Assembly: GCA_018992685.1 (NCBI GenBank)
Contig: JACVGT010000019.1
Coordinates: 32,001 to 96,000, forward strand
Length of the DNA: 64,000 nt
Direction of reading: 5' to 3'
Origin: Theionarchaea archaeon
Lineage (GTDB): Archaea; Methanobacteriota_B; Thermococci; Methanofastidiosales; SZ-28-30
The notes below the pieces were generated by a model. It did no database searches and was not told the origin of the DNA. It saw only the letters and a list, made by a program, of their open reading frames with translations. Positions 5,393 through 33,921 of the stretch are shown here, piece after piece (position 1 is the stretch's first letter; each line of letters begins with the position of its first letter). A program made the position numbers and the translations under genes.

Positions 5393-6361
5393 CTACATCA
5401 GAGGGTAGTGGCATGCCACGAAATGGCCATCTCCCATATCACGCAGCTGAGGGATTTCTGTGGCGCAGTTTTCTTTTGCATATCGACATCGGGGATGGAA
5501 CCGGCATCCCTGAGGAGGATTGGCTGGTGTCGGCACATCACCCGTGAGAATGATCCTCTTCCTCTTCTTTCGGGGATCGGCTATGGGTGCTGCCGAAAGG
5601 AGTGCCTCAGTATAGGGATGGTACATCTTCTCGAAGATCTGTTCTTCTGTACCCATCTCGACAATGACACCCACGTACATCACAGCCACTCTATCACTGA
5701 TGTGTCTGACGATGCTCAGATCGTGAGTAATGAACATCATAGTTAGCCCTTCCTCTTTCTGGATGTCAGACAGCAGATTCAAGATCTTTGACTGAACAGA
5801 CACATCCAGGGCAGATGTTGGTTCGTCTGCCACGATCAGCCTTGGCTTGAGCGCAATGGCTCGGGCTATGCCAATTCGCTGCCTCTGTCCTCCAGAAAAT
5901 TCATGAGGGTAACGGTATATGTGAAAGGGCGCCAACCCAACTTCATTCATGAGCCGCAGAACAACTTTCTTCTTCTCTCCTGATTTCAATTCCCCATGGA
6001 TTTCGAAGGGCTCTCCAATAATGTCATAGACAGTCATCCTGGGATCCAGTGATGAGTAGGGATCTTGGTATATCATCTGAGCTTCTTTCTTGAATTCCTT
6101 CAGTTCCCGGGATCCCAACTTACTAACATCTCTTCCTTCAAAGAGGATTTCTCCTGCTGTTGGTTCGATGAGCCTCAGGACAGTCTTTCCCAGCGTGGTC
6201 TTTCCACATCCAGACTCACCCACAATGCCCAGGATTTCCTTGGGGAAGACATCAAAACTCACATTATCCACTGCTCTGATATCTCCCACCTTTCGCCCAA
6301 AGAATCCCGCAGTTATGGGAAAGTACTTCTCCAGATTCCTAACCTGCATTAGCGGCTTCAT
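5393..6361 (-). CDS. dppF: Peptide ABC transporter ATPase (DppF/OppF)
   Basis: [17 protein letters not shown]-terminal CRFHPRC; ATG overlaps the dppD stop (ATGA). Confidence 0.95.
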
Positions 6362-7338
6362 AACTTGGTCCCCTCCCTTTTGTGCCAGCACTCAACATAG
6401 TGATCGCCAATCCACTCTCCGTTTGGCTGTTCCTTTTCACAAACCTCTGTTGCAAAGTCACACCGAGGATGGAACCGGCATCCAGATGGAGGATAGATTA
6501 GATTGGGGACAACACCCTTGATAACACCCAATTTCTGTTTCTTCTCTGTCACCTTGGGTATCGCCTCATGAAGTGCGATAGTATAGGGGTGAAGTGGGGC
6601 ATGAAAGACAATGTCAACTTCTCCATACTCAACCAGCCGCCCAGCGTACATCACTCCCACATGATCAGACATCTCGGCAATGACACCAAGGTTATGCGTG
6701 ATGAGCAAGACTGTTGTGCCTAGCTCTCTCTTGAGGTTGTTTATCATGTCCAAAACCTGTGCCTGAACTGTCACGTCGAGATTTGTCGTGGGCTCGTCTG
6801 CTACCAGCATTTTGGGATTACATGAGAGAGCCATTGCAATCATGACCCGCTGCTTCATTCCTCCACTAAACTGATGTGGAAAGTCATCAACACGGGCATC
6901 AGGGTCGGGGATACCCACGAGATCTAACATTTCAATTGCTTTCTGTCTAGCTTCTTTTTTCCCAAGACCCTGGTGAAGTTCAATCACTTCTCTCAATTGA
7001 TTGTCCACCGTATATACGGGGTTAAGTGCACTCTGAGGATCCTGGAATATCATTGAAATGTCATTCCCTCTGATTTGCCTCATGTCGCTCTCAGAAAGAG
7101 CCAGGAGGTTCACACCTTCAAAGAGAATCTCTCCATCAATAATCTTCCCCGGAGGATCGGGAACAAGTCTGAGGACAGACAGGGCAGTGACAGTCTTTCC
7201 ACAACCAGATTCACCGACCAGCCCTAAGGTCTCTCCCTGCTCAATGTGAATATCGATTCCTTCCAACGCTCTTACGATGCCATCCTCTGTATAAAAGTAC
7301 GTTCTCAGTCCTTTAATTTCCAGTAGATTATCAGCCAA
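6358..7338 (-). CDS. dppD: Peptide ABC transporter ATPase (DppD/OppD)
   Basis: [22 protein letters not shown]; TTG start with GGTGA RBS. Confidence 0.95.
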
Positions 7339-7342
7339 AATA

Positions 7343-8269
7343 TCACCTTTTCAGTCGAGGATCGAGTGAATCTCTGAGTCCATCACCCAGCAAATTGAAT
7401 CCCAAAACAGCAATGAAAATCATGATACCGGGCAGTACGGTAATCCACCAGGCTGACCTCATGACATCTCGTCCTTCAGCGCAAATTCGTCCCCATGAGG
7501 GAATCACAGGGTTCCCGAACCCCAGGAATGCAACACCTGCCTCTGTCAGAATTGCTGCAGCCATTCCAAACGTTGCTGCCACGATCACAGGTGCAATTGC
7601 ATTGGGGAGCATGTGCCTCCAGATGATACGAAAGTTGGATGCCCCGAGTCCCCGTGCTGCTTCTGTGAACTGCCTCTCCCTGAGAGACAAGATTTCGCTC
7701 CGGATTAATCGGGCATATCCTGTCCAGTTGATGAAAGCAATGGCCAACCCGATCATGATCAGACCGCCTTCAGGATACAAAGTCACGAGGATGACGACTA
7801 TTGGGATAAAGGGCAGTGCCAGGAAAACATCAACAATTCTCATCAGAAGAATGTCCAGTACTCCTCCATAGTACGCAGAGATGGCTCCATACAATGTACC
7901 GACTATTCCACCGATGCCAACAGCAACAATCCCCACCAGAAGGGATCTTTCTGCACCATACAGCAGGCGAGAGTACAGACACCTTCCAAGAGCGTCAGTG
8001 CCAAGTGGAAATTCAGGGTTTTCACCCGGTGCCAGGTAACTGTTCATCAGCGAAACAGTATTAGGGTCATTTGGTGCTATTTCTGGAGCAAAAATCGCCA
8101 TTAATACAACTACCAGGAATACGCCAAATCCTACAATACCAGCTTTGTTTCTGATGAAGCGCCGGAGGGTTGTCATGAGCATTCCTGCACTTCGTTCTGC
8201 CTCACGCAACTGCTGCTCCAGCTCCTTGTCCATTTCAGGTATCTCAGTCGTTTTCTTCTTTTCTGCCAT
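7343..8269 (-). CDS. dppC: Peptide ABC transporter permease (DppC/OppC)
   Basis: LGTDALGR, EAARGLGA, FNLLGDGLRDSLDPR. Confidence 0.95.
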   Translation of the reverse strand: MAEKKKTTEIPEMDKELEQQLREAERSAGMLMTTLRRFIRNKAGIVGFGVFLVVVLMAIFAPEIAPNDPNTVSLMNSYLAPGENPEFPLGTDALGRCLYSRLLYGAERSLLVGIVAVGIGGIVGTLYGAISAYYGGVLDILLMRIVDVFLALPFIPIVVILVTLYPEGGLIMIGLAIAFINWTGYARLIRSEILSLRERQFTEAARGLGASNFRIIWRHMLPNAIAPVIVAATFGMAAAILTEAGVAFLGFGNPVIPSWGRICAEGRDVMRSAWWITVLPGIMIFIAVLGFNLLGDGLRDSLDPRLKR

Positions 8270-8284
8270 GAAATCACCTTTAGA

Positions 8285-9268
8285 CTAAAACTCCACTCTT
8301 GGATCAAGCCATTTGTAGGAAATGTCAATCAAGACATTAGCCACTAGAATAAGAGTTCCAAGTACCACGGTAATCCCTACAATGACGAAATAGTCCCTGT
8401 GCTGAATTGCATACACAAAGTACTTCCCCAGGCCGGGCCATGAAAACACTGTCTCAGTAATAGGTGCTCCTCCCAGGGTAAGTGCAATCTGCATCCCTGT
8501 CACAGTTATCACTGGAAGCATTGCGTTTCTCAGTGCATGCTTGTAAATCACTATTCGTTCCTTGAGCCCCTTGGCCCTTGCTGTCATGATATAGTCTTCC
8601 CGCAGGACATTGAGCATTGAGGATCGGACCAACCGCGCATTGTATGCAGTCGATGCCAGACCCAGAGTCAATGTGGGCAGAGCCAGATGTTTCAGGTAAT
8701 CAAAGTAGTACGAAAAGTCATGGGGAATATCTTTTCCCAGAAACACCGTAGAATGGGCACCCCCACTGGGAAGCCATCCCAGTATCAGGGCAAATATGAA
8801 AATGTTCATCAACCCCAGGAAGAATATGGGGAACGAAACGCCCAGTAACGCCGCTGTCATGACCAGATTATCCGTCTTTGAATATTGTCTGACTGCAGAT
8901 ACAATTCCTGCTGGGATAGCAACACCTATCGAAAAGACAACGGCAAGCAGCTGGTATGATAGGGTGTTTACCACTCTGGCCCCGATTTCTTCGGAGACAT
9001 CTCTTCCAGATAGAAATGAAGATCCAAGATTAAAGGTTGCAAACTGTTTGAGCCAGTAAAAGTACTGGATATACCAAGGTTTATCCAGGCCGTAAATCGA
9101 TTTTATGTGTGCCACGTATGCAGGATCAGTGTCGGGCTGTAGTGCCAACATGAGATCAACAGCATCCCCTGGCATCAAGTACATTAGCATGAACACTATG
9201 AAAGAGATTCCCATGAGCATGGGAATAATCAGGATCACTCTTTTCAGGATATATTCTCTCATTCCCAT
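8285..9268 (-). CDS. dppB: Peptide ABC transporter permease (DppB/OppB)
   Basis: MPGDA, YGLDKP, EDYIMTARAKGL, WLDPRV; AAGGAGG RBS. Confidence 0.95.
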   Translation of the reverse strand: MGMREYILKRVILIIPMLMGISFIVFMLMYLMPGDAVDLMLALQPDTDPAYVAHIKSIYGLDKPWYIQYFYWLKQFATFNLGSSFLSGRDVSEEIGARVVNTLSYQLLAVVFSIGVAIPAGIVSAVRQYSKTDNLVMTAALLGVSFPIFFLGLMNIFIFALILGWLPSGGAHSTVFLGKDIPHDFSYYFDYLKHLALPTLTLGLASTAYNARLVRSSMLNVLREDYIMTARAKGLKERIVIYKHALRNAMLPVITVTGMQIALTLGGAPITETVFSWPGLGKYFVYAIQHRDYFVIVGITVVLGTLILVANVLIDISYKWLDPRVEF

Positions 9269-9394
9269 ATCGCACATCCTCCTTTGTTTTGTTTAGAGCA
9301 AGTCTCCTCATGTCGGGGCTGTTCTTTCTTGTCCTCAGTCATTTCAACTCTCCCTCTTCAAAAAAGGGAAAAAGAGGGAAAAAATTTTGTTCTT

Positions 9395-11314
9395 CTAGTC
9401 TTTCTTCTTTACCATGTACCCAATGGCAAGTCCGACTATCAGGGCAACTATTCCAATTACAATCAGTGTCGTGGTGGACGTACCACCAGCTCCAGCTTCT
9501 CCGCCTTCTACCGTTACCTGTTTCTCAATGATGTAGTAGCGGTATCCTGCCGTGTCCATCAATTCTCGTGCCTTGGCCAGGTCATACGGGTCTGGTGCAA
9601 TGTTGGTGTTGAAGGCCCATGAGGGAACAGCAACAGGGTTCCGTCCGGGTACACCGTAGCCACCCAACAGGTTGTCCACAATTCCCTGTCTGTCAATACA
9701 GGAGGAAATGGCCTGTCTCACGTACTTGTTGGCCAGGTATGGGTTGCGGCAGTTGAAGTGCAGGTGCTGGTAGCCGAACTGCTCTGAAGTCCACAACTTG
9801 ATGCCGGGAGTAGCTTCGAGATCCTCACCAATGGCTGTCAAGTTGTAGTAGGTGTCCATCATGTCGATTTCGCCAGTTTCCAGGGCAACACGGGCTGCCT
9901 CTCTCTCGGGTATCAATTTCAGCACAAAGAAGTCGCATCCTGCTTCTGGGAGACCATACTTTGAACCCCAGTAGTTGGGATTCTTCTTCAACTTCCAGTA
10001 CTGGTCAGCTTCCCACGAGTCAAAGATGAAGGGTCCAGAACCAATGACGGTTTCTCCCCTGTTGACGTCAGACTCCATCCACTTGGTAGCAGCTTCTGCT
10101 CCTGTTATAGGAATATCACCATAGAGGTGCTTGGGCAGAATGTTGGTGTCACAGTATCTGAGCCAGGCAGCGTGGGGCATTCCGACATACACTCTCAGTG
10201 TGTACTTGTCAACGATTTCTGATCCACCATAGACATCTCTGAATGTTCCATATCCCTGGAAGGCAGTATCTGGGCTGACACAGGCATCAAAGGACCACTT
10301 GATATCTTCGCTTGTCATTTCCACACCATCGTGGAACATGATGCCTTCTCTGATCTTAATGTCGAAGTATTCTGGGAAGACTACAGGTTCAGCGAGCTTG
10401 GAACTGACATTACACTTGTTGACATCAGGGGCCATAGCCTCAATTGAAGCATCGTCCAGCATGCTGGGGGCAAACACAATAGTAGGTCCTTCTGTTGTAG
10501 AATCTGCCAGCAAGGGTGACATGTTCAGGTTATCGTCGTTCTGCCACAGTGTCTGGAAAATCTGCTGGTTGCAGTAGTATCCATACACTGAGTTCCATCT
10601 CCAGACCAGCATTCCCTCAACAGCTGCAGGTGTACCATAGACAATGGTGTCTTTTCCAGGAATTGACCAGGACGCAGCATCATAGTTCTGTGTCCACAGC
10701 AATCCACTGAATCCTTCAAAGGTGTCTATTGAGGCCCACATGTTGAGTGGGATGTACACCACACAGTACGGCTGTTCATCTGCAACAATCTCCTGGAATC
10801 TCCACAGGTATTCCTTTCTCTTTGCCTGATCAATTTCGACTCGTGCTTTAGCCAGCATCTCGTCAGCTTCCGGGCAGTACCAGAATGTCACGTTGTTACC
10901 TATGGGGGTCATTGCAGAAGAGTGGAATATGTCAAAGGGATCAGGGTCTACGCCCACTGACCAGCCGAACGAAGAAATGTCGAATCCATCTTCAGAATAG
11001 GATTTTCCGTAGTAGTTGTTGAACTCCCTGTTGATCAGGTCTCCGAACTCCAGCAACTTGAAGTCAGCCTGAATGCCGATCTTGGGCATCTCAAGGTTGA
11101 CAGCCTGGGTGTACTGCTCTCTGACCTTGTTCCCGATAGGAGCAATCTGCGTAATCGAAAAGAACGGTGGGTACTTGGAATAATCCTCAGTAAAGGGAAC
11201 CTTCGTGATCTCCTGTTCCTGAGCAATCGCAGTAGTTCCGAATAAAGAAAGTACCAAAGAAGTCAAGAGAACAATCGACAGCACCATTGAGACTTTTCTT
11301 GTTTTTACATTCAT
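9395..11314 (-). CDS. Family-5 solute-binding protein SBP1, circularly permuted, plain C-terminal TM anchor; first gene of the ABC operon
   Basis: Start MNVKTRK after AAAGGAGG; motif IREGIMFHDGVEMTSEDI lies mid-protein; tail TTTLIVIGIVALIVGLAIGYMVKKKD has no Cys. Confidence 0.92.
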   Translation of the reverse strand: MNVKTRKVSMVLSIVLLTSLVLSLFGTTAIAQEQEITKVPFTEDYSKYPPFFSITQIAPIGNKVREQYTQAVNLEMPKIGIQADFKLLEFGDLINREFNNYYGKSYSEDGFDISSFGWSVGVDPDPFDIFHSSAMTPIGNNVTFWYCPEADEMLAKARVEIDQAKRKEYLWRFQEIVADEQPYCVVYIPLNMWASIDTFEGFSGLLWTQNYDAASWSIPGKDTIVYGTPAAVEGMLVWRWNSVYGYYCNQQIFQTLWQNDDNLNMSPLLADSTTEGPTIVFAPSMLDDASIEAMAPDVNKCNVSSKLAEPVVFPEYFDIKIREGIMFHDGVEMTSEDIKWSFDACVSPDTAFQGYGTFRDVYGGSEIVDKYTLRVYVGMPHAAWLRYCDTNILPKHLYGDIPITGAEAATKWMESDVNRGETVIGSGPFIFDSWEADQYWKLKKNPNYWGSKYGLPEAGCDFFVLKLIPEREAARVALETGEIDMMDTYYNLTAIGEDLEATPGIKLWTSEQFGYQHLHFNCRNPYLANKYVRQAISSCIDRQGIVDNLLGGYGVPGRNPVAVPSWAFNTNIAPDPYDLAKARELMDTAGYRYYIIEKQVTVEGGEAGAGGTSTTTLIVIGIVALIVGLAIGYMVKKKD

Positions 11315-11363
11315 ATCTTTTCTACCTCCTTTGATCGGTATTGTATCCACGTACAGGGAAAGG

Positions 11364-20059: not shown

Positions 20060-20166
20060 GAAATGTGTAATGAAAGGGACGCTATACGGGGAAGTGAAGG
20101 TTTTCATCCTTTGTTCCTCTGCGTGCCGGCCAAAAGCTTTATATTTCAACAGAAGCAATCTCTCCT

Positions 20167-21210
20167 GTGGAATCGACAACTGATATTCTGGAGAAACTCA
20201 TAGAAGAAGAACAGAGAATAAGGCAGAAAGCAGAAGAACTGGGACTCCATGTCGGAAAAGAGTCACTAGAAGAGGCTAAGAAGCCCTTCAGGGCCAAAGA
20301 AGGAATTCCCAGGACAGAACTCACTGAACGAGAGATGTCTCGGCTGCTGGCCGAAACGAGGGATATTCTTGACATCTACAGCTTGGATTATGTTTCTGAG
20401 CATTTTGATGAGGCTAAGAATCTGTATTACGCGCTGAAGGACAAACCCTTCTCGCCTGATTCTCTCATTGGATCACGAATCGTGCAGAATATCCAGGAGT
20501 TGAAGGAACGAATCGATGCAGTGGAAGAACAGGAATCTCCAACAAAACCACTGGAAGAACTGCTTTCTGATTCGAAGAGGCTTCTTGATTCTCTGGATTC
20601 ACTTGACGCAGTTCAGGCGAAACGGCGCTATGCTGATCTGCTGAAGAGACAGCAGGATGCGCCCAAGAATGTGGATCAGCCACTTGAAGTAGAAATCGAC
20701 GAGTACCTGCTGGAAATTGGGAAACGAATTCAGCGAACAGAAAAAAAGACATCTGAAGAAATTGGAGAAGAGCTTCTGGAAGAAATCAGCACGTTGATTG
20801 GATCCAAGAGTTTTGATCCTGAAGGATACAACAGGATTGCCAGAAAATTCCAGGAAATAGCAGATGATCTTCCTGAAGATCTCAAAGTGAAAATAAGAGA
20901 CCGCATACGCGAGTCCTTTGCCAAGATGAAGGATCTCGAACAAAAGGAACACGTTGAAGAACGAATACGGGAAGAACGTGCCAAGAAGTTCTACTGGGAT
21001 TCATTCGCTCAGGAGGTGGAACAACTGAAGGCCGATCTGGAGCGAGCAACACCTGGAGAGTTTTTCAGGCTCTACGATATCTACAATCAATTGCTGGACT
21101 CACTGGAACACGCAGATCTATCAGATGTTCATGCTGCCCAGATTGAGCGGGTAAAATCAATGATAGATCAGTGTTACTACATGCTGGAAGAACTCAGATC
21201 ACGAGCATGA
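20167..21210 (+). CDS. Acidic alpha-helical/coiled-coil hypothetical protein
   Basis: 347-aa E/K/L-rich ORF; TATA-like TTTATAT about 25 nt upstream. Confidence 0.75.
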   Translation: MESTTDILEKLIEEEQRIRQKAEELGLHVGKESLEEAKKPFRAKEGIPRTELTEREMSRLLAETRDILDIYSLDYVSEHFDEAKNLYYALKDKPFSPDSLIGSRIVQNIQELKERIDAVEEQESPTKPLEELLSDSKRLLDSLDSLDAVQAKRRYADLLKRQQDAPKNVDQPLEVEIDEYLLEIGKRIQRTEKKTSEEIGEELLEEISTLIGSKSFDPEGYNRIARKFQEIADDLPEDLKVKIRDRIRESFAKMKDLEQKEHVEERIREERAKKFYWDSFAQEVEQLKADLERATPGEFFRLYDIYNQLLDSLEHADLSDVHAAQIERVKSMIDQCYYMLEELRSRA

Positions 21211-21214
21211 TACC

Positions 21215-21997
21215 CTATTTGGGGAGTCGTCCCAGTTCCACCACTCCTTTGGAAACAATGCGCTGTACCGTTGTTCTGGATCCGATCTTCAGGCTGCCAT
21301 CACACATGACTTTCTGAAGAACGCTGTCAGATCCCACGTAGATATCTCCTTTACAGTATACATCTTCTTTTACTTCACAGAAATTCCCTATTTCCAGCTG
21401 GACTTCTATGTTCACCGGCGAATTCATAATATTTCTGTCTCCAAGAGATGCATCCTTACCTTTTATAGAACCCTTGAACTCACACTCGGCTTTGCTCTTC
21501 ACCGTTGAAGCCACCACATCCCCATACACCATATTTTTGCTACCAAGGTGGACTTCTTCTCCTGCTTCAATATTCCCTTTTATAATGACTCCATCTCCGA
21601 GGTGGATGCTGCGGCTGGTTTTCAGCCCTCCTGTAAGAACCAGATCATCAGAGAGGCTAATGTCTGAGTCTCTGGCCACAATGGCAAAGGTTTTCAGGGA
21701 AATCTCATCCTTTTTCTGCTGTATTACCTGTTGAAGTTCGGATATTTCAAGATTCTTTTCTTCAATAATCTGTTTCAGCTGGCGTTCAGTTTCTGCAAAA
21801 TTTTCCACCTTGTCCAGGAGAGCCTGGTTATCCTCAGTCAGCCTTTCGGCTACCTCTCGTAACTTGGACACTCCGCCGTATTCCTTCCTGTAGGTTTCCA
21901 ACTCCCTGGTGATACGGGAGTTTTCGTCCCGCAATTCGGTGGCCATCCGTCTTAGAGATTCTATAACCTCATCTTTTCCTTTGTCAAAGAGCCCCAT
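21215..21997 (-). CDS. Coiled-coil plus bactofilin-like beta-helix protein
   Basis: Start MGLFDKGK after GGAGG; heptad region, then repeats IKGNIEA, VYGDVVA, FKGSIKG, VKEDVYC. Confidence 0.7.
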   Translation of the reverse strand: MGLFDKGKDEVIESLRRMATELRDENSRITRELETYRKEYGGVSKLREVAERLTEDNQALLDKVENFAETERQLKQIIEEKNLEISELQQVIQQKKDEISLKTFAIVARDSDISLSDDLVLTGGLKTSRSIHLGDGVIIKGNIEAGEEVHLGSKNMVYGDVVASTVKSKAECEFKGSIKGKDASLGDRNIMNSPVNIEVQLEIGNFCEVKEDVYCKGDIYVGSDSVLQKVMCDGSLKIGSRTTVQRIVSKGVVELGRLPK

Positions 21998-22157
21998 GCT
22001 GTTCAACCTCCATTCTTTTTTTCTACAGCATATATATAGCTTTTTCCATTGCCATTGCCGGACTGGTGAAGACCACATCCATTGTCAAGTCAGGCTCTGT
22101 TCTTCATACGTGGCTGAGCAGAAAAGTCGTTTTCTTTCGCCAATGCGAAAATAAAGT

Positions 22158-22619
22158 TCACATTGAGGATTTTCTCTCAGTCAGCTCGAACAAGCAGTAG
22201 CTATCTCCGGCAGCCTGACAGGAGGTCTCCCTGTACATGATGTCTTCTTTACTGTAATATCTGGAAACCAGCCCCTCGAAAAACCCAGCCAGAAAATGAC
22301 ACACGGGGTCATTACTTTCCGCATAGCCAGAAGCAATCGGAGAATCAGTAACCTGGAACTGAAATTCTTCAGGATGAAAGGTAGCCCTCACAAAGCCAGT
22401 GGCTTCCAGCTCGGCCAAAAGATCCTGGATGGTGGCGCCTTCATCTTCTGATTGCATGATTTCCATGTACTTGTCGCCAAATTCCTTTCCTGCAGAGTAG
22501 AGAACTTTGGCCGCAGAGGGCCCAATGGAATCCTCCAGCGTTTTCTGGATTTTCATGAAAATGCTGTTAAGCACCACTAGCTTCCTCTTTTTTTCCACCG
22601 GCAGCAATTCTTTCATCAT
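22158..22619 (-). CDS. V4R-domain protein
   Basis: LYSAGKEFG, PVCHFLAGFFEG, ETSCQAAGDSYCLF. Confidence 0.88.
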   Translation of the reverse strand: MMKELLPVEKKRKLVVLNSIFMKIQKTLEDSIGPSAAKVLYSAGKEFGDKYMEIMQSEDEGATIQDLLAELEATGFVRATFHPEEFQFQVTDSPIASGYAESNDPVCHFLAGFFEGLVSRYYSKEDIMYRETSCQAAGDSYCLFELTERKSSM

Positions 22620-22742
22620 ATATCCTTTCAATCAGGACTTTATAAAGGTATAGGAGGCGAGCAAAGAGGTAGTAGACCTGCCTTCTTGCTGACATTTCAA
22701 GATCTGCTGCTCCGGTGTCTGCCATCACGCTGAGGAGCCACA

Positions 22743-23537
22743 CTACGAGCCAAACCAGGCATCTAGCCTCCTCTGCCCAGGCTGGGCCTTCCTGTACGGG
22801 ATGTTCAGAAGGTCCTTCAACATTCGTGCGTTGCTGATTGCCTGCCCTCGGGGGTGATTATTGAACTGGAGATACAAAGTCTCGGTTGAGAGACGTATTT
22901 CTTGCACTTTGGGTACCCACTCCTTCAATTCTTCTTCTGAGTATTGATAGTCATACCAATGCGATGGGTTCCTTCCATGCCATCTAACATATCCAAGATC
23001 TGATGTGATTCGTACGAGAGGTTCCATTTTCACAGAATCTGTCACAACAAAGGCGGCGTGGTCATCTCTGAGAAAGGAAACGTCAATTCTCGAGTCCCAG
23101 GAGGTGTGGCGGAACTCTACCGCAAACCGCACATTGTCAGGTAGAAAGTCCAAGAACTCCTTCAGGTTATCTTCATACTCTGTAGAGAACTTTGGAGGCA
23201 ATTGAATGAGGAAACAGCCCAGCTTTCCTGAATCTATGAGAGGAAACATCAAAGAATAGAATTCCTTGAACACCGGTTCTGAATTCTTGAGAAATCTCTT
23301 GTGAGTAATCTCTTTGGGGATCTTTGCGGTGAAGACAAAATCATCAGGTACCTTCTTGTTCCAGGAAATGACCGCGTACTTATTGGGTAGGGCATAGAAA
23401 GTGGAGTTAATCTCTACCAGATTGAATTCCCTTGCATAAAACTCTAACATCTTTCCCTTCTCAATGCCTTCAGGGTAAAACGGGCCAATCCAATCATCAT
23501 AGCTCCAGCCACTCGTTCCTATGTATAAGGTTCCCAT
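22743..23537 (-). CDS. DUF72 (YecE-like) TIM-barrel protein
   Basis: IGTSGWSY, VEINSTFY, AVEFRH, YVRWHGR, FNNH. Confidence 0.92.
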   Translation of the reverse strand: MGTLYIGTSGWSYDDWIGPFYPEGIEKGKMLEFYAREFNLVEINSTFYALPNKYAVISWNKKVPDDFVFTAKIPKEITHKRFLKNSEPVFKEFYSLMFPLIDSGKLGCFLIQLPPKFSTEYEDNLKEFLDFLPDNVRFAVEFRHTSWDSRIDVSFLRDDHAAFVVTDSVKMEPLVRITSDLGYVRWHGRNPSHWYDYQYSEEELKEWVPKVQEIRLSTETLYLQFNNHPRGQAISNARMLKDLLNIPYRKAQPGQRRLDAWFGS

Positions 23538-23720
23538 AGTAGGAGTTCTTCTGATACCAAAAAAATGTTACGGTTCCTGTGCTGTAATGAGCCCCTGTGA
23601 TACTTCTGCTCCTGTTCTGCTGAGCCCCCATATCGATGCAAGGCCTCACATCACACATCTTTTGTTCCCACATCGAAGGGACGTACTTCCAGCATCCGAG
23701 CTCAATCATCCACGTGTCAA

Positions 23721-23798
23721 CCGAAAGTCTTATAAGTAGTAGTTATTATAATAACAAGTAGCTACTACTAAAAGTAGTATCTACTACGGAAAATCGGA
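23721..23798 (+). promoter_or_regulatory. BRE/TATA promoter of SBP2 followed by tandem operator-like repeats
   Basis: CCGAAAGT CTTATAAG; TACTAC-taaaa-GTAGTA (23763-23779); TACTAC-ggaaa-ATCGGA (23782-23798). Confidence 0.72.
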
Positions 23799-23799
23799 A

Positions 23800-23903
23800 C
23801 TCCAATACCGTCTGCTGGTTGAAGATGTCGGCCTCCTTGGATCGGTATTGCAGACACTGAACCCGATCAACATCACCTCCAGCAGATGGTATACAGAATG
23901 GAG
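23800..23903 (+). ncRNA. Structured 5' leader RNA of SBP2 with a bulged anti-SD/antisense segment
   Basis: Stems 23805-23818/23879-23892, 23824-23828/23870-23874, 23840-23845/23863-23868; homologous to the SBP3 leader with compensatory changes. Confidence 0.7.
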
Positions 23904-23921
23904 ACCAAAGGAGGAAGAAAA

Positions 23922-25811
23922 ATGAACACAAGAAAGATCTCAGTCGTATTGTCTGCCGTGTTACTTGCTTCTTTAACTCTATCCCTATTCGGAACCAGTA
24001 CTGTTGCACAAGAACAGCAGTGGAAAAAAGTGCCAACTACTGAAGACTATTCCAATTACCCCGCATTCTTTTCGATCACGCAGATTGCCCCCATTGGGAA
24101 CAAGGTTAGGGAACAGTATACACAGGCAGCCAACCTCGAAATGAGAAAAATCGGCATAGGGGCTGACTTCAGAATGCTGGAGTTCGGAGACCTGATCAAC
24201 AGGGAATTCAACAACTACTATGGCAGCACATTTGCTGAAGATGGATTCGACATTTCTTCATTCGGCTGGTCAGTGGGAGTAGACCCCGATCCCTTTGACA
24301 GTTTCCACTCTTCTGCAATGACCCCCATAGGTAACAACATTACATTCTGGTACTGCCCGGAAGCTGATGAGATGCTCTCTCTCGCACGAGTTGAACTTGA
24401 CCAGCAAGCCAGAAAGGAATACCTGTGGAGATTCCAGGAGATTGTTGCGGATGAAAAGCCCTACTGTGTGGTGTATGTGCCACTGCTCATCTGGGCCTCC
24501 ACAGATCAACTGGAAGGCTTTAATTCACTGATGTGGCAGCAGAACTTTGATGCTGTAACCTGGTCAATTCCAGGAAAAGACACCGTTGTCTATGGTACAC
24601 CCGCAGCTGTCGAGGGTATGCTGCCCTGGAGATGGAACTCAGTGTATGGACACTATCTTCACAACCAGATATTTGAGACATTGTGGACCGTTGCTCCAGA
24701 CCTCACCATTGAATCAAGAATTGCTGACTCTGCAACAGAAGGACCTTCAATCGTATTTGCCCCTAGCACTCTTGATGATGCTTCAATTGAGGCTCTCGGA
24801 CCTGATGTCAAGAAGTGTGTGGTGAACACCAAACTCGCAGGTCCTGTTGTGTTCCCCGAATACTACGACATCAAAATCAAAGAAGGCATCATGTTCCACG
24901 ATGGCGTGGAGATGACCAGTGAAGATGTCAAGTGGTCAATGGATGCCTGTGTCAGCGCAGACACCGCCTTCCAGGGATGGGGTACCTTCAGAGATGTATA
25001 TTCCAGCTCAGAAATCCTTGACAAGTACACACTGAGAGTGTATGTCGGGATGCCCCACGCAGCATGGGTACAGTATTGTAATCCATATGTATTGCCCAAG
25101 CATATCTATGGTGGCATTCCTATAACAGGAGCAGAAGCTGCCACCAGCTGGATGGAATCTGACATCAACAGAGGAGACACTGTCATTGGTTCAGGACCCT
25201 TCATGTTTGATTCCTGGGAAGCTGACCAGTTCTGGAAGATGAAGAAGACACCTGACTACTGGGGTTCTGCATATGGATATCTTGAAGCAGGATGCGACTT
25301 CCTGATACTGAAATTGATACCCGAGAGAGAGGCAGCCCGTGTTGCCCTGGAAACTGGAGAAATTGACATCATGTGCTGCTACTACCAGCTCGGAGCAATT
25401 GCTCAGGACCTGGAAGCTACCCCCGGCCTAGTGTTGTGGACCACAGAAGACTTCGGCTACCAGCACCTGCACTTCAACTGCCGCAACCCGTACCTTGCCA
25501 ACAAGTACGTGAGACAGGCCATTTCCTCCTGTATTGACAGACAGGGAATTGTGGACAAGTTGCTGGGTGGTTATGGTGTGCCTGGTGCCAACCCTGTTGC
25601 CGTTCCCTCGTGGGCCTTCAACACCAACATTGCACCAGACCCATACGATCTGGACAAGGCACGAGAGTTGATGGACACGGCAGGATATCGCTACTACGTC
25701 CTAGAAAAGACGGTGAGCACAGGCGGAGAAGAGGAAGCTGGAGGCGGATTCTGTCTGGGAACCCTGTTTATAGCCCTTATGAAGACTAATCATCTATTCA
25801 GGAGAGAGTGA
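23922..25811 (+). CDS. Orphan family-5 solute-binding protein SBP2, circularly permuted, CLGT tail with shortened hydrophobic segment
   Basis: Start MNTRK after AAAGGAGG; close paralog of SBP1 and SBP3; ends GGFCLGTLFIALMKTNHLFRRE. Confidence 0.92.
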   Translation: MNTRKISVVLSAVLLASLTLSLFGTSTVAQEQQWKKVPTTEDYSNYPAFFSITQIAPIGNKVREQYTQAANLEMRKIGIGADFRMLEFGDLINREFNNYYGSTFAEDGFDISSFGWSVGVDPDPFDSFHSSAMTPIGNNITFWYCPEADEMLSLARVELDQQARKEYLWRFQEIVADEKPYCVVYVPLLIWASTDQLEGFNSLMWQQNFDAVTWSIPGKDTVVYGTPAAVEGMLPWRWNSVYGHYLHNQIFETLWTVAPDLTIESRIADSATEGPSIVFAPSTLDDASIEALGPDVKKCVVNTKLAGPVVFPEYYDIKIKEGIMFHDGVEMTSEDVKWSMDACVSADTAFQGWGTFRDVYSSSEILDKYTLRVYVGMPHAAWVQYCNPYVLPKHIYGGIPITGAEAATSWMESDINRGDTVIGSGPFMFDSWEADQFWKMKKTPDYWGSAYGYLEAGCDFLILKLIPEREAARVALETGEIDIMCCYYQLGAIAQDLEATPGLVLWTTEDFGYQHLHFNCRNPYLANKYVRQAISSCIDRQGIVDKLLGGYGVPGANPVAVPSWAFNTNIAPDPYDLDKARELMDTAGYRYYVLEKTVSTGGEEEAGGGFCLGTLFIALMKTNHLFRRE

Positions 25812-25988
25812 CACTATTTGAAATCTCCTGATTGAGCCAAAAATCCCATAAAGATTTTATCCTTCAACCTAAGAACTCAACCTGTCAACATTTCTTATCC
25901 AGTATTACCAATAGTGTCATGACATATGCACCTTTCATCCCACTACCATAGCAGCAAGTAGCTCCGGGAGAAAGAACATTAATTCCAA

Positions 25989-26056
25989 GCGAAAGTTTTA
26001 TAAAGCACAGTAACTACTAAATTCAAGTAGTTACTATTTTAAATAGTATCTACAAC
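25989..26056 (+). promoter_or_regulatory. BRE/TATA promoter of SBP3 followed by operator-like repeats
   Basis: GCGAAAGT TTTATAAA; TACTAT-tttaa-ATAGTA (26032-26048); half-site TACAAC (26051-26056); also AGTAACTACT-N7-AGTAGTTACT (26009-26035). Confidence 0.72.
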
Positions 26057-26064
26057 TGAGACAA

Positions 26065-26153
26065 TCCCGGACCGTTCACTGGATGAAGATGTCACCTCCT
26101 TTGATCGGTACTCTACATTCGATCCGACATCTCATCTGGTGGATGGTGCGGGA
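26065..26153 (+). ncRNA. Structured 5' leader RNA of SBP3 with a bulged anti-SD/antisense segment
   Basis: Stems 26065-26069/26149-26153, 26071-26086/26132-26147 (4 G-U pairs), 26088-26093/26126-26131, 26103-26107/26120-26124; bulge ACCUCCUUU. Confidence 0.72.
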
Positions 26154-26178
26154 AATGGAGACTAAAGGAGGATAAAAA

Positions 26179-28080
26179 ATGAATACGAAAAAGATTTCGG
26201 CAATCCTGTCAGTTGTGCTCGTTGCTTCTCTTGTGATATCCCTTTTCGGGACAACTACTGTCGCTCAAGAGGAAACCATGACACAAGTACCGTTCACCGA
26301 GGACTATTCCAAGTACCAGCCATTCTTTTCGATTACGCAGATTGCTCCCATCGGGAACAAGGTCAGAGAACAGTACACCCAGGCCGTCAACCTTGATATG
26401 CCAAAGATCGGCATTAAGGCTGACTTCAAGCTGCTGGAGTTTGGAGACCTGATCAACAGGGAGTTCAACAACTACTATGGTAGTACATTCGCTGAAGACG
26501 GATTCGACATCTCTTCATTCGGCTGGTCGGTGGGTGTAGACCCCGATCCCTTTGACATATTCCACTCTTCTGCAATGACCCCCATAGGTAACAATGTGAC
26601 GTTCTGGTACTGCCCTGAGTCTGACGAGATGCTGGCCAAGGCACGAGTCGAATCAAATCAGGAAACCAGAAAGGAATACCTGTGGAGATGGCAGGAAATT
26701 ATTGCAGATGAACAGCCCTACTGTGTGGTGTATGTGCCACTGCTCATCTGGGGCTCAACAGATCAGCTGGAAGGCTTTGACCCACTGTTGTGGCTGCAGA
26801 ACTATTCTCTGGAAACATGGGAAATTCCAGGAAAGGATACCATTGTCTATGGATCACCTGCGGCTGTCGAGGGTATGCTGCCCTGGAGATGGAACTCAGT
26901 GTATGGTCGTTATCTGCATTCACAGATCTTTGAGAGTCTGTGGCTTGTGGATAACAACCTGGTGATTTCACCCCGACTTGCAGAATCAGCAACAGCAGGG
27001 CCTACCATTGTGTTCGCCCCCAGCGCTATTGATGATGCTTCAATTGAGGCTCTGGCCCCTGATGTCAAAAAGTGCAAGGTGAATGACAAGCTCGCAGAGC
27101 CTGTCGTATTCCCCGAGTACTATGACCTCAAGATCAGGCAGGGCATCATGTTCCACGATGGCGTGGAGATGACCAGTGAAGATGTCAAGTGGTCAATGGA
27201 TGCTGTCATCAGTGCAGACACTGCCTTCCAGGGATGGGGTACCTTCAGAGACATATATGACAGCTCTGAGATTATTGACAAGTACACGGTAAGAGTATAT
27301 GTCGGAATGCCCCACGCAGCATGGGTTCTGTACTGCAACCCAACTGTACTGCCCAAGCATGTCTATGGTACTATCCCCATAACAGGAGCAGAAGCTGCCA
27401 CTAGCTGGATGGAGTCTGACATCAACAGGGGAGAGAACGTCATTGGTTCTGGACCCTTCATGTTTGATTCCTGGGAAGCTGACCAGTTCTGGAAGATGAA
27501 GAAGACACCCAACTACTGGGGTGTCAAGTATGGTGTTCCCGACCCACAATTCGAATACTTCCTCATCAAGCTGATACCCGAGAGAGAAGCTGCACGTGTC
27601 GCTCTGGAAACTGGAGAAATTGACATCATGGACACGTACTACCAGCTCGGAGCAATTGCTCAGGATCTGGAAGCTACTCCTGGGTTGAAGCTGTGGACCA
27701 CAGAAGACTTCGGCTACCAGCACCTGCACTTCAACTGCCGCAACCCGTACCTGGCCAACAAGTACGTGAGACAGGCCATTTCCCACTGTATTGACAGACA
27801 GGGAATTGTGGACAACCTGTTGGGTGGCTACGGTGTACCCGGTGCTAACCCTGTTGCCGTCCCGTCATGGGCCTTCAACACCAACATTGCACCAGATGCA
27901 TATGACCTGGTCAAGGCTCGGGAAATGATGGACAAGGCAGGATACCGCTACTTCATCGTTGAGAAAGCAGGCGCAGCTGGTGGAGAAGAGGAAGCCGGAG
28001 GCGGACTCTGTCTAGGAACCATGTTCATAGCCCTTATGGTCTTGGGCGGAAATCTGCTCTATCTCAAGAAGAAAGAGTAA
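26179..28080 (+). CDS. Orphan family-5 solute-binding protein SBP3, circularly permuted, intact CLGT tail
   Basis: Close paralog of SBP1 and SBP2; ends GGLCLGTMFIALMVLGGNLLYLKKKE. Confidence 0.93.
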   Translation: MNTKKISAILSVVLVASLVISLFGTTTVAQEETMTQVPFTEDYSKYQPFFSITQIAPIGNKVREQYTQAVNLDMPKIGIKADFKLLEFGDLINREFNNYYGSTFAEDGFDISSFGWSVGVDPDPFDIFHSSAMTPIGNNVTFWYCPESDEMLAKARVESNQETRKEYLWRWQEIIADEQPYCVVYVPLLIWGSTDQLEGFDPLLWLQNYSLETWEIPGKDTIVYGSPAAVEGMLPWRWNSVYGRYLHSQIFESLWLVDNNLVISPRLAESATAGPTIVFAPSAIDDASIEALAPDVKKCKVNDKLAEPVVFPEYYDLKIRQGIMFHDGVEMTSEDVKWSMDAVISADTAFQGWGTFRDIYDSSEIIDKYTVRVYVGMPHAAWVLYCNPTVLPKHVYGTIPITGAEAATSWMESDINRGENVIGSGPFMFDSWEADQFWKMKKTPNYWGVKYGVPDPQFEYFLIKLIPEREAARVALETGEIDIMDTYYQLGAIAQDLEATPGLKLWTTEDFGYQHLHFNCRNPYLANKYVRQAISHCIDRQGIVDNLLGGYGVPGANPVAVPSWAFNTNIAPDAYDLVKAREMMDKAGYRYFIVEKAGAAGGEEEAGGGLCLGTMFIALMVLGGNLLYLKKKE

Positions 28081-28121
28081 TCCTTTTTTCCTTTTTTTCT
28101 TTGCATTTTCTCTTTTTATTT
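28081..28121 (+). terminator. Oligo-T terminator
   Basis: Several T5-T7 runs directly after the SBP3 stop. Confidence 0.65.
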
Positions 28122-28246
28122 GGAATTAAACCACTGAATCAGAAATCATTTTCTCACACACTCCACCCAATACCTGAGGAATCCTTTGCCTTGCTTTCCT
28201 TCTTGTCTCACTCAGGAATTTCTGTGTCCAGAAATCACTCACCAGA

Positions 28247-29047
28247 CTACGTCCCGTCCACTATGTGTATCACTCTCTGAGGAAAGGGTATGTGTATGCC
28301 TGCTTTTTCCAGCTCTACTTTCATTTTCCATAGCAACTCCATCTGTACTGTATACCACACCTGTGAAGGGGCCCATACCCGTATGCTCAGGCGGACACTG
28401 CTGTCCCCCAGGTCGTCCACATAAACAGCTGGTCTAGGATTGACCAGTACAAAAGGGTGTTCTTCCAGCACCTTCTTTATGACCTGTATAGCCTCCTCCG
28501 CATCATCCTCGTATCCAATTCCTATGGAATACTCAAACCGTCTGGCAGGGTATTTCACATAGTTCGTAATGTTTGACGAAAACACCTTCTCGTTCGGTAT
28601 CCTCATATACGTGCCATCAAATGTCCTCACTACTGTAGAAAGTACCCGTATATCCTCTACAACACCTGAAATATCTCCTATCTGAATCTGATCTCCGATC
28701 CTGATTGGTCTTTCAACAATCAAGAAGAGTCCTGAGATCAAATTCGAGACAACACTCTGGCTGGCAAACCCCAGCACAACACCCGCGAATCCTCCAGCAA
28801 CCAAGAGTCCAGTGAGATGAAGACCAAGTTGAGGGAGGGCAATGACAACTCCCACAGCAATTATGCCATAGTATATGAGTCTCTCCGCGATGCTGAGGAC
28901 ATGTTCAGCAACCCGTTCTTTCAGGGCTGTTCTCACATTTGTCCTCACTAATCTGGCAACGATCACAGAGATGACAACAGTTAAAAGAAACACCGCAATG
29001 TCGCGCAGAGTAACGTCGCCAAATACTGAAAGAGATTGATCCATCAT
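28247..29047 (-). CDS. mscS: Small-conductance mechanosensitive channel
   Basis: GFASQSVVSNLISG, RPIRIGD, IPNEKV, IPFPQR. Confidence 0.93.
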   Translation of the reverse strand: MMDQSLSVFGDVTLRDIAVFLLTVVISVIVARLVRTNVRTALKERVAEHVLSIAERLIYYGIIAVGVVIALPQLGLHLTGLLVAGGFAGVVLGFASQSVVSNLISGLFLIVERPIRIGDQIQIGDISGVVEDIRVLSTVVRTFDGTYMRIPNEKVFSSNITNYVKYPARRFEYSIGIGYEDDAEEAIQVIKKVLEEHPFVLVNPRPAVYVDDLGDSSVRLSIRVWAPSQVWYTVQMELLWKMKVELEKAGIHIPFPQRVIHIVDGT

Positions 29048-29781: not shown

Positions 29782-29961
29782 GTCCCCTTTTCTTTCTCGA
29801 GATTTATAAAGGTTGCAGTGTGGTTACAGGCCAGGATGGGGCCAATTCAGGTGCCCTGACATGTCTGTCCTGCAGTCTTTCCAGTGCTGCTGTATCGCTC
29901 CCCGAAGAAAAAGAAAAGTTTAAGTAGACTCTTGTCGATCAACATCTATGGAGGAACAATC

Positions 29962-30360: not shown

Positions 30361-30433
30361 GGATTGACACAGTGGTTCCCCTTTTTTATGTCTCTCTCAT
30401 GCCGGTATTCTAGACGTTCTCTGTGAGGTGGGT

Positions 30434-31315: not shown

Positions 31316-31457
31316 GAGGAAGAATGGTTTTTTTCATATATAAGGGTTTGTAACTCCCGAATTACCACAGAATCTGTTCTTACTGCTTTGGAACCTGGTT
31401 TTCCGCAAGATTTAAAAGGTTGCACCCTCATAGAAGTAGATCAATGGAGAAGACGTC

Positions 31458-33920: not shown

Positions 33921-33921
33921 G

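Follow-up and report, generated by a model that had tools for sequence, protein, structure and literature searches.

RESULTS

Orphan solute-binding protein genes and the SBP1 operon

The window analyzed here, a 64,000-nucleotide stretch of a Theionarchaea contig, carries on its plus strand two orphan genes for family-5 solute-binding proteins, SBP2 (23922..25811; 629 amino acids; PF00496, E 1.5e-56) and SBP3 (26179..28080; 633 amino acids; PF00496, E 1.1e-60). SBP2 has no adjacent permease gene, and the gene after SBP3 encodes an MscS channel on the opposite strand. The only adjacent permease/ATPase operon is the one headed by the paralog SBP1 on the minus strand (5393..11314; Pfam SBP_bac_5, BPD_transp_1 twice, and ABC_tran plus oligo_HPY twice), which consists of SBP1 (9395-11314), two permease genes (8285-9277 and 7343-8269), and two ATPase genes (6358-7338 and 5393-6391).

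Both orphan genes are preceded by a predicted plus-strand promoter: at SBP2 (23721..23736), a BRE-like CCGAAAG followed by a TATA-like box, with a predicted start at about 23758, and at SBP3 (25990..26005), CGAAAG with TTTTATAAAG in a conserved block, with a predicted start at about 26027. A block of CGAAAG and a TTTATAA-like sequence lies upstream of SBP1, SBP2, SBP3, and homologs in G001, G003, G004, G016, and L025. From the TATA box to the leader hairpin described below, SBP2 carries an array of overlapping AGTAG..CTACT-type palindromes (23735..23787; inverted repeats of 11-27 nt, 70-92% complementary), which by its sequence resembles the operator of a DNA-binding protein. The operator-like array of SBP3 (26009..26053; a 10-nt perfect and a 13-nt, 92% inverted repeat) is kept, except for its spacer, in the sister genome G001, and a related array is also found upstream of the SBP1 TATA box. 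Given the predicted promoters, some 35-40 nt would precede the hairpin, which is therefore not at the predicted 5' end. Metatranscriptome contigs were found at 26051-26249 (depth 126.6), 26081-26249, and 23833-24204, those of SBP3 running into the coding sequence, although such RNA-library contigs may contain DNA and give neither RNA ends nor levels. The SBP3 contigs from RNA libraries begin at 26051 and 26081 and DNA contigs extend further upstream, a weak hint as to the transcription start.

A common three-stem hairpin in the SBP2 and SBP3 leaders

The leaders of SBP2 and SBP3 share an unbranched three-stem hairpin with no branch points, in which CCTCC lies in an asymmetric internal loop. 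The SBP2 hairpin (23800..23903, plus strand), supported by MFE folding, covariation with three other copies, and a CM, comprises P0 (23800-23804/23899-23903), P1 (23805-23818/23879-23892), P2 (23824-23828/23870-23874), the CCTCC motif (23832-23836), and P3 (23840-23845/23863-23868). The SBP3 hairpin (26065..26153, plus strand), supported by MFE folding, strand comparison, the G001 ortholog, and metatranscriptome contigs, likewise comprises P0 (26065-26069/26149-26153), P1 (26071-26086/26132-26147), P2 (26088-26093/26126-26131), CCTCC (26095-26099), and P3 (26103-26108/26119-26124). In each leader, this hairpin is the MFE fold, at -42.6 kcal/mol for SBP2 (z -3.3; 1 of 200 shuffles equally good) and -47.7 kcal/mol for SBP3 (z -4.65; 0 of 200), and CM bit scores of the SBP2 hairpin were 69.9 (R1) and 111.8 (R2). 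The first-pass annotation of this DNA had described one long interrupted hairpin common to both leaders, and the MFE folds and RNAalifold agree with it; the stems that it quoted were all found in place. It had also listed in SBP2 a competing pairing of 23803-23810 with 23843-23850 and a second anti-SD, of which the two complementary segments and the CCTCC (23876-23880) are present in the sequence, but neither feature is kept in the other three copies.

Distribution of the element

Four copies of the element were found: SBP2 and SBP3 in the genome of the window (G000) and, in G001, SBP3 together with SBP4, which is a fourth paralog. All four genes with the hairpin fall into a single clade (support 97/97), and none has an adjacent ABC permease gene, SBP4 being followed by an MFS gene. 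The element is present in 4 of the 10 homologous SBP genes with readable upstream DNA and, by CM search, in 2 of 133 genomes of the class; metagenome runs that hold it, among the subset of runs examined, come from sediment, mangrove, and soil. A BLAST search of the SBP3 leader against its own genome returned only itself and short matches, and CM searches of 36 and 133 genomes returned SBP leaders only. When window positions 15000-35000 were scanned on both strands with cmscan against Rfam 15 (E up to 1), neither leader matched a known family, as the proposal of a new archaeal RNA family would have it. A match to Xist_exon1 at 34013-34088 in the same scan was rejected as chance (19.1 bits versus a gathering score of 50). 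The word family is nonetheless generous for four copies in three lineages, two genomes, and one genus, and because there are only four sequences, whose RNA ends we infer, the element is better called a lead than a family.

Paired stems are maintained at the RNA level

Compensatory base changes had been noted between the two leaders, and RNAalifold of the SBP2 and SBP3 copies gave 27 pairs, of which 3 changed on both sides, C-G to U-A and A-U to G-C swaps among them. When all four copies were aligned, 82.1% of the 112 cells paired, versus 35.7-42.7% with slid partners. Both sides changed in 9 of the 28 pairs, and the observed score was reached by 0 of 500 shuffles, a test that overstates significance for related sequences, here four copies from three lineages and two genomes. 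Fold z-scores of the four copies were -3.3, -4.65, -2.9, and -2.6. The SBP3 leader differs from its G001 ortholog at 10 of 118 positions, compared to 90 of 274 4-fold sites (0.328; P 3.9e-10). The P0/P1 arms have diverged between paralogs to a neutral-like extent (7-15 of 22 positions), with pairing kept.

A long inverted repeat near a promoter might also act as DNA, that is, as a protein-site palindrome, a cruciform, or a miniature inverted-repeat mobile element, and the minus strand of the SBP2 repeat folds as well as the plus strand (-44.7 versus -42.6 kcal/mol). Against this, the four copies hold 13 G-U and 4 A-C cells (4 and 0, respectively, among the 28 pairs of SBP3), and the minus strand of SBP3 is 14.7 kcal/mol worse than the plus strand (-33.0 kcal/mol, z -0.9). 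Neither BLAST in the own genome nor the CM searches revealed dispersed copies, and arms that diverge with pairing kept are incompatible with sequence-specific DNA binding; we therefore consider a DNA-level role very improbable. The G-U excess over A-C, the compensatory changes, and the strand asymmetry of SBP3 bear out the RNA-level pairing originally proposed. Altogether, the 5' leaders contain a sense-strand RNA structure under purifying selection, whose pairing is kept by compensatory change.

An exposed internal loop of conserved sequence

The loop evolves differently from the arms. We define the SBP2 anti-RBS element as 23832..23850 (plus strand), which runs from the internal-loop CCTCC through the 5' strand of P3 into the beginning of the P3 loop; the SBP3 element (26094..26110, plus strand; 17 nt) is a perfect complement of the SBP1 RBS. 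Over its 19 nt, the loop element shows only 1-4 differences among copies (P 0.00025-0.08), and that of SBP2 differs from the others at 1-3 positions, with neutral divergence at 0.33-0.57. Within hairpins of -42 to -48 kcal/mol, CCTCC is predicted to be unpaired at 0.73-1.0 at 37 C; the placement of an anti-SD in a bulge is upheld, CCTCC being conserved across copies and lying in the internal loop. Conservation continues for about 14 bases 3' of CCTCC, including TATTG within the P3 loop, while the bases 5' of it vary among copies (TCA, CGG, CTA). Because the partner strand of P3 in SBP4 differs from that in the other copies, P3 pairing alone cannot account for the sequence constraint on the loop element. 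In this design, the long outer stem P0/P1, whose sequence may vary provided that it stays paired, holds P2 and P3, and the loop between them exposes the anti-RBS element.

These features bear on two further explanations. In one, the leader is purely structural, a 5' hairpin that stabilizes the mRNAs of highly expressed binding-protein genes or a processing signal, and the anti-RBS is a relic of the inverted duplication from which the hairpin arose: the element resembles an SBP1-type leader copied in inverted orientation, the sense form (CCGATCAA) recurs in the 3' strand of the SBP2 P3, the SBP3 and SBP4 hairpins are bordered by direct repeats of the AGAC type in an insertion-like manner, and the SD is predicted to be free, so that the default state would be "on." However, a relic would be expected to erode as the P0/P1 arms have done, where SBP4 differs from the other copies at 13-15 of 22 positions, and the SBP4 loop differs at only 2-4 of 19; a stabilizer requires pairing and no fixed unpaired sequence, and the predicted 5' end lies upstream of the hairpin. 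We regard this explanation as unlikely. In the other, the TCACCTCCTT loop between its stems would imitate the 16S rRNA 3' tail and serve as the site of a protein that normally recognizes this tail or of a dedicated regulator. An exposed loop with sequence-specific conservation would suit a protein site, and the SBP3 loop presumably reads like the 16S rRNA 3' end; an rRNA-like context for the tail motif was not found in this assembly. Such an operator seems highly doubtful, as the loci show no link to any candidate protein, the sequence 5' of CCTCC is variable, and the conserved bases 3' of it are unlike the rRNA tail.

The Shine-Dalgarno sequence lies outside the hairpin

The ribosome-binding region of SBP2 (23900..23924, plus strand) contains GGAGAC, the SD GGAGG at 23910-23914, and the ATG at 23922; that of SBP3 (26154..26181, plus strand) contains GGAGAC, the SD at 26167-26171, and the ATG at 26179. 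The four copies show 0-3 differences from one another over the 16 positions of the block with GGAGAC, a conservation equal to that of the loop element. The SD, outside the hairpin, is predicted to be unpaired with a probability of 0.56-0.88 at 37 C (SBP2, 0.57; SBP3, 0.88), and the AUG at 0.93-0.99. From 15 to 65 C, predicted SD accessibility goes from 0.55-0.65 to 0.55-0.94, and the hairpin remains the MFE fold.

The first-pass annotation had suggested a riboswitch-like or thermosensor-like switch. A long, structured, conserved leader before transporter genes, with an anti-SD and matching no known family, could be a new class of ligand-sensing riboswitch or RNA thermometer. The hairpin, however, is unbranched and has no aptamer-type junction or pocket, its only conserved unpaired bases are those of the anti-RBS element, and the spread is narrow at 2 of 133 genomes; as for a thermosensor, the SD outside the hairpin is predicted to be largely unpaired throughout and to change little with temperature. 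We thus consider either kind of switch most unlikely; what the element suggests is a narrow control of translation specific to this lineage, not a riboswitch.

The loop complements the SBP1 ribosome-binding site better than its own

The loop elements complement the RBS of SBP1 over 17-23 nt, the site being 23 nt on the minus strand (11321..11343) that end 6 nt before the ATG at 11314. The SBP3 element has a 17-nt identity to 11324-11340 by BLAST, and the SBP2 element is complementary over 11 + 7 nt with one mismatch. In all four leaders, the duplex with the SBP1 RBS is stronger than that with the own RBS (-32.1 to -36.5 versus -16.7 to -20.0 kcal/mol; for SBP3, -32.1 versus -16.7). We ranked targets by energies corrected for opening, an approximation of our own in which G001 leaders were scored against G000 gene starts, and among 811 SD-led gene starts, each of the four leaders had the SBP1 RBS as its top target (-17.3 to -22.8 kcal/mol; SBP2, -17.3; SBP3, -17.9; background mean of about -1 to +0.4, standard deviation of about 4.6-5.1), with the own RBSs at ranks 16, 141, 9, and 17. 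The SBP1 leader itself is short and lacks the hairpin, and its G001 ortholog (L011) shows no structure (z +0.25); these two genomes, the only ones with the element, have the same SBP1 RBS sequence. What is new here, and was missed by the first-pass annotation, is that the loop is a far better complement to the RBS of SBP1, the paralog at the head of the operon, than to the RBS of its own gene.

A cis switch is a possible but less than probable explanation for the element. The loop anti-SD would pair with the SD of its own gene and block initiation, and the hairpin, or a factor acting on it, would decide between the two states; a protein, a small RNA, a helicase, or folding kinetics are conceivable factors. 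Apart from a specific ligand, this is what the first-pass annotation essentially had in mind. In agreement with the suggestion that the bulge could pair with the gene's own SD, CCTCC and its flanks form 7-9 bp with the own AAAGGAGG in 4 of 4 leaders. The local concentration of a cis partner is very high, the RBS block with GGAGAC is conserved like the loop element, and in SBP2, with one base bulged, a T-to-G change in the element might allow pairing to the CC in the RBS of that gene. Nevertheless, enforcing anti-SD:SD pairing costs 8.6-17.8 kcal/mol relative to the hairpin fold in each of the four leaders, among nested folds only, and the SD is predicted to be mostly open. Pairing with the own RBS is about average for GGAGG sites (means of -16.8 and -19.5 kcal/mol over 8347 sites), and the own RBS ranks only 9-141 of 811 after accessibility correction. 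By geometric estimate, reach is strained, the hairpin base being 9-17 nt from the SD and the loop some 21-27 bp up the stem. The own RBS of SBP4 has drifted (AAGTGGAGG) with no matching change in the loop, and masking an SD needs no conservation of the 14 nt past CCTCC.

A further leader bears on cis action. The leader of an operon-heading SBP homolog in G004 (L013) resembles those described here in gene family, promoter block, palindromes, and an anti-SD (GCCTCC) upstream of the SD; unlike them, it is short and lacks P0-P3, and predictions at all temperatures tried have its anti-SD base-paired with the SD of this same leader (P = 1.0; P unpaired 0.0). Its CM score was only 13.8 bits, and homology to the hairpin element is uncertain.

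The mechanism that we prefer, still tentatively and somewhat short of an even chance, is masking of the SBP1 RBS in trans by the leaders of the orphan genes. The exposed loop would seed the pairing to the SBP1 mRNA at its RBS, and the duplex would extend from there along the 5' strand of P3, to 17-23 nt in total, and cover the SBP1 SD. The SBP4 loop element, despite its drifted own RBS, still matches the SBP1 site by eye at 22 of 23 positions with one G-U. By duplex energy alone, the SBP3 element ranks the SBP1 site first among 8347 GGAGG sites, but for the SBP2 element this site falls outside the top 8. RNAcofold ranks it 550 and 342 of 811, with no advantage; this program cannot pair the internal loop of an intact hairpin and therefore tests a different model. 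Other points weigh against trans pairing: the complementarity may simply descend from an ancestral leader that was copied in inverted orientation, no separate leader-derived RNA or T-tract terminator after the hairpin is known, the anti-SD:SD pairing in the short G004 leader favors cis action in this gene family, and the trans model gives no reason for the conservation of GGAGAC immediately before the SD. In a mixed model, the SBP1 RBS and the own RBS may compete for the loop.

DISCUSSION

Leaders that sequester the SD are well known from the expression platforms of translational riboswitches and from RNA thermometers such as ROSE and fourU. The leaders studied here share with them an anti-SD upstream of the SD in the same leader, a stable hairpin, and a gene with a strong SD, but differ in that the SD is outside the hairpin and predicted to be open, the anti-SD is unpaired in an internal loop, and there is no aptamer-like junction. 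The Escherichia coli rpoS leader is a long interrupted hairpin with an internal antisense element, in which the RBS is inside the inhibitory stem and is opened by small RNAs, and the bacterial pairing is Hfq dependent. The SBP2 and SBP3 leaders likewise carry an internal antisense element within a long interrupted hairpin; here, in contrast, the RBS is outside the stem and the host is an archaeon. mRNA leaders or riboswitch-derived RNAs can also act in trans, e.g., Listeria SreA, and our proposal resembles this case in that an mRNA leader would double as a regulator of another mRNA. To our knowledge, Archaea have few described RNA controls of the cis or leader-borne kind, this uncultured sediment lineage has none, and a full-text literature search found no archaeal anti-SD leader of this kind.

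Archaeal small RNAs that mask RBSs do exist, e.g., sRNA41 of Methanosarcina mazei (reviewed in PMC5867862). The leaders share with such small RNAs a structured RNA exposing an anti-RBS with extended complementarity to the RBS of another mRNA, and the proposed effect, translational repression, is alike. Compared to these small RNAs, the anti-RBS here lies in an mRNA 5' leader rather than in a small-RNA gene, and the target would be a paralog of the carrier gene.

Whatever its mode of action, the element is a small, clean example of a stem whose sequence evolves neutrally with pairing kept, beside a loop of frozen sequence. If it acts in cis only, it would be another SD-masking leader, of local interest. 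If it does mask the RBS of SBP1, this would be a simple archaeal mRNA-mRNA interaction that is testable. Transcription of the orphan genes would then lead to replacement of SBP1 by their products at the shared transporter. Such an mRNA-to-mRNA circuit, which we put forward as a conjecture with roughly one chance in three, would have the transcription of accessory binding proteins silence the resident SBP1 posttranscriptionally and thereby reprogram the specificity of the ABC transporter; in that case, the competition of extra substrate-binding proteins for a single ABC permease would be played out between their RNAs.

Results

Two orphan solute-binding-protein genes share a hairpin leader

The genome under study (G000) is a 3.0-Mb metagenome-assembled genome that is 91% complete, and the window holds three paralogous family-5 solute-binding-protein genes with PF00496 matches: SBP1 (9395-11314, minus strand), SBP2 (23922-25811, plus strand) and SBP3 (26179-28080, plus strand). 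SBP1 heads a complete SBP-permease-permease-ATPase-ATPase operon; SBP2 and SBP3 are stand-alone genes. All three have a common promoter block (CGAAAG plus a TTTATAA-like element), which is separated from the ATG by approximately 190 nt in SBP2 and 180 nt in SBP3 but by only 57 nt or so in SBP1, leaving the latter a short, unstructured leader. Downstream of the operon is a fourth, more distant family-5 gene (1564-3498, minus strand); it carries a separate TATA-like box, and its leader is ordinary and lacks CCTCC. The interval from an ECF-type transporter module to the SBP2 promoter includes a caspase-domain (Peptidase_C14) ORF (19205-20059) and a V4R-domain ORF (22158-22631), for which no link to the hairpin was seen.

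Arrays of AGTAG..CTACT-type palindromes were located at 23735-23787, 26009-26053 and 11385-11467, as well as in the upstream regions of six other loci read (L010, L011, L013, L019, L020 and L025). They accompany the promoter block of this SBP family in every genome seen and are probably the operator of one transcription factor; in SBP2 and SBP3 the TATA box precedes the array, and in SBP1 it follows the array, an opposite placement that suggests opposite control.

In SBP2 and SBP3, the hairpin follows the palindrome array. Every stem that the first-pass annotation had quoted for these leaders was found in place, and the minimum free energy (MFE) folds of both are the same unbranched hairpin, composed of a basal stem P0, P1 of 14-16 bp, P2 of 5-6 bp and a 6-bp hairpin P3, with CCTCC on the 5' side of an asymmetric internal loop. 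The Shine-Dalgarno sequence (SD) and start codon lie outside, 9-17 nt past the hairpin base. Compared to dinucleotide shuffles, the SBP2 leader (MFE of -42.6 kcal/mol) has a z of -3.3 and the SBP3 leader (-47.7 kcal/mol) a z of -4.65. RNAalifold on the pair returned 27 base pairs, 3 of them changed on both sides, in agreement with the compensatory changes reported earlier. A terminator or attenuator was rejected because no T-tract follows the hairpin; no K-turn or bulge-helix-bulge motif was seen in it by eye. In SBP3 (26056-26060 and 26157-26161) and in SBP4, a further paralog in the sister genome G001, the hairpin is flanked by GAGAC/AGAC direct repeats, which have an insertion-like look; none were seen in SBP2.

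The hairpin is confined to one clade in two genomes

Homologs were gathered from a back-translated scan across genomes, one per species (6 loci, 4 relevant), a protein search of 61 related genomes (homologs in 5) and a metagenome scan (1 locus, without the hairpin), and 10 homologous genes in all had readable upstream DNA. The hairpin is present in four of these, i.e., SBP2 and SBP3 of G000 and the SBP3 ortholog and SBP4 of G001, and absent from five, i.e., SBP1 of both genomes and the homologs in G016, L025 and G003; the remaining gene heads an operon in G004, and its short leader contains an anti-SD. All four genes with the hairpin are orphans, and they group in a single clade (support 97/97). 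SBP4 is the informative copy: its outer stem is a perfect 15-bp helix unrelated in sequence to the others, and it keeps the ribosome-binding-site (RBS) block and the loop element, i.e., CCTCC with approximately 14 following nt. The number of orphan copies differs between the two genomes: G001 lacks SBP2 at the syntenic place, which is taken directly by DUF72-like ORFs, and its SBP4 is on another contig adjoining an MFS transporter gene, with no SBP4 in the 91% complete G000.

A covariance model built from two sequences (R1) gave no further copies over 36 genomes, and its search listing did not include SBP4 of G001, though R1 scores that copy 23.3 bits. A model from four sequences (R2), run over 133 genomes of the class, gave 4 matches of at least 93 bits in two genomes, followed by a next best of 23.5 bits. 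Among the 11 weak matches at or below that score, 7 were read and none was arranged like the hairpin; another two correspond to the SBP1 RBS in antisense. BLAST of the own genome for other copies returned none. CCTCC occurs within 160 nt upstream of 113 of 812 SD-led ORFs of G000, the six most similar of these leaders being unlike the hairpin on reading, and the leaders of the three other SBP_bac_5 genes of this genome are without CCTCC. Since the leaders had no Rfam match, identity with a known RNA family was rejected, as the proposal of a new family had anticipated.

The stems and the loop element are constrained differently

With P0-P1-P2 taken as the structure, 82.1% of the 112 cells of the four-sequence alignment pair, versus 35.7-42.7% when partners were slid by 1-3 columns; both sides changed in 9 of 28 pairs, and none of 500 column shuffles reached the observed covariation score, these figures being indicative for four related sequences rather than a significance test. 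The alignment has 13 G-U cells and 4 A-C cells, and the fold of SBP3 is 14.7 kcal/mol worse on the minus strand than on the plus strand, which together point to pairing in the sense RNA; SBP2 has no such asymmetry. A feature acting at the DNA level is given very little weight.

Selection on the hairpin leader is clear from the following comparisons. Between the SBP3 orthologs, 32.8% of 4-fold sites differ, compared to 10 of 118 hairpin-plus-RBS positions (P = 3.9e-10). When paralogs are compared, 7-15 of 22 positions differ in the P0/P1 arms, a level expected of neutral sequence, whereas only 1-4 of the 19 nt from CCTCC onward and 0-3 of 16 in the RBS block differ; for the two comparisons with G001 SBP3, neutral rates were borrowed from the corresponding SBP3 comparisons. 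In the four sequences compared, which come from three lineages in two genomes, the outer stem is thus constrained only in its structure and the loop element in its sequence. That the hairpin has a purely structural role or is a relic is improbable; that the conserved loop element is a protein operator is more so. A leader peptide was rejected, as reading frames are not conserved across the four leaders and none is preceded by an SD: that of SBP3 (26083-26175, 30 codons) runs through the hairpin and stops 3 nt before the ATG, that of SBP2 has 11 codons, that of G001 SBP3 continues into the gene, and that of SBP4 is without a start. The divergence of SBP2 from SBP3 at 4-fold sites is 33%, equal to that between the SBP3 orthologs of G000 and G001, and yet the protein identities are 81% and 95%, respectively, a contrast that would reflect either fast evolution of the SBP2 protein or sequence exchange between SBP2 and SBP3.

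Contigs from two metatranscriptome runs cover 26051-26249 (depth of 126.6), 26081-26249 and 23833-24204, each running into the coding region, and DNA contigs of the same study extend upstream beyond 26051. Stretches without cover by RNA-run contigs, e.g., 23650-23823, carry no information. The data fit a long 5' leader holding the hairpin, contigs being silent on ends, strand and level and RNA libraries being able to hold DNA.

The SD is predicted to be open

In the four leaders, the predicted P(unpaired) at 37°C is 0.56-0.88 for the SD, varying little between 15 and 65°C, and 0.73-1.0 for the anti-SD. In energy models without pseudoknots, forcing the anti-SD onto the SD in a nested fold costs 8.6-17.8 kcal/mol. 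An open SD and this cost are at odds with a thermometer and with a simple masking hairpin, and the thermosensor-like behavior suggested initially found no backing; nor did its riboswitch-like counterpart, the hairpin holding nothing aptamer-like. A ligand or temperature sensor is therefore highly unlikely. The main rival to the reading we prefer is that the loop masks the SD of its own gene in cis, in response to some factor opening or bending the hairpin. The forced-fold penalty counts against it. In its favor, the GCCTCC of the G004 leader (L013, approximately 2430-2487) is predicted to pair with its own GGAGGC, with P(unpaired) of 0.0 at every temperature tried; G004 is of another family and has just this one, operon-heading homolog, whose leader appears to represent plain SD masking within the gene family. 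We consider cis masking somewhat less likely than the preferred reading. A pattern search of the G000 assembly did not return the 3' end of 16S rRNA, which would carry the organism's own anti-SD sequence.

The loop element is complementary to the SBP1 RBS

By BLAST, 17 nt of the SBP3 loop match the SBP1 start region. At the mRNA level, the loop element complements the ribosome-binding region of SBP1 (11321-11343): 17 nt perfectly in SBP3, 20 nt perfectly in G001 SBP3, 22 of 23 in SBP4 with one G-U pair counted, and 11 plus 7 nt with one mismatch in SBP2. Duplexes with the SBP1 site have energies of -32.1 to -36.5 kcal/mol, versus -16.7 to -20.0 kcal/mol for the own RBS, the latter only average for any GGAGG site in the genome. 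When the cost of opening both partners was added, by which we approximated an accessibility-based score ourselves, the SBP1 site took first rank among 811 SD-led gene starts with each of the four leaders, and the own RBS ranked 16, 141, 9 and 17, the G001 leaders being ranked against G000 gene starts. Furthermore, a conserved TATTG lies within the P3 loop, the conserved strand of SBP4 pairs with a different partner, and the own RBS of SBP4 has drifted with no matching loop change. These observations are in keeping with a conserved external partner as the source of the constraint, rather than P3 pairing or the own SD.

Discussion

We tentatively favor masking of the SBP1 RBS in trans by the loop element, a reading to which we give somewhat less than even chances for several reasons. 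The complementarity may simply go back to an ancestral leader that was copied in inverted orientation; the SBP1 target is identical in both genomes, leaving no coevolution to compare; for the SBP2 element, SBP1 does not stand out on duplex energy alone; no leader-derived RNA is known; and the G004 prediction places cis masking within this gene family. RNAcofold likewise gives SBP1 no advantage (ranks of 550 and 342 of 811); it is unable to pair the internal loop of a closed hairpin and was set aside for that, yet it still does not support the trans model.

The hairpin fails those defining features of riboswitches and RNA thermometers that could be tested, and it works like an anti-SD leader or an RBS-masking antisense RNA. 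Archaeal sRNAs that mask RBSs have been described, such as sRNA41 of M. mazei (PMC5867862). Searches of open full text on archaeal anti-SD leaders and on Theionarchaea turned up nothing that describes such an element. We would place the hairpin within a known type of control, as a narrowly distributed variant with the unusual twist of a leader that may be aimed at the RBS of a paralog. The orphan binding proteins would have to use the permease encoded behind SBP1; by masking the RBS of the SBP1 mRNA, the exposed loop would let them take over the transporter.
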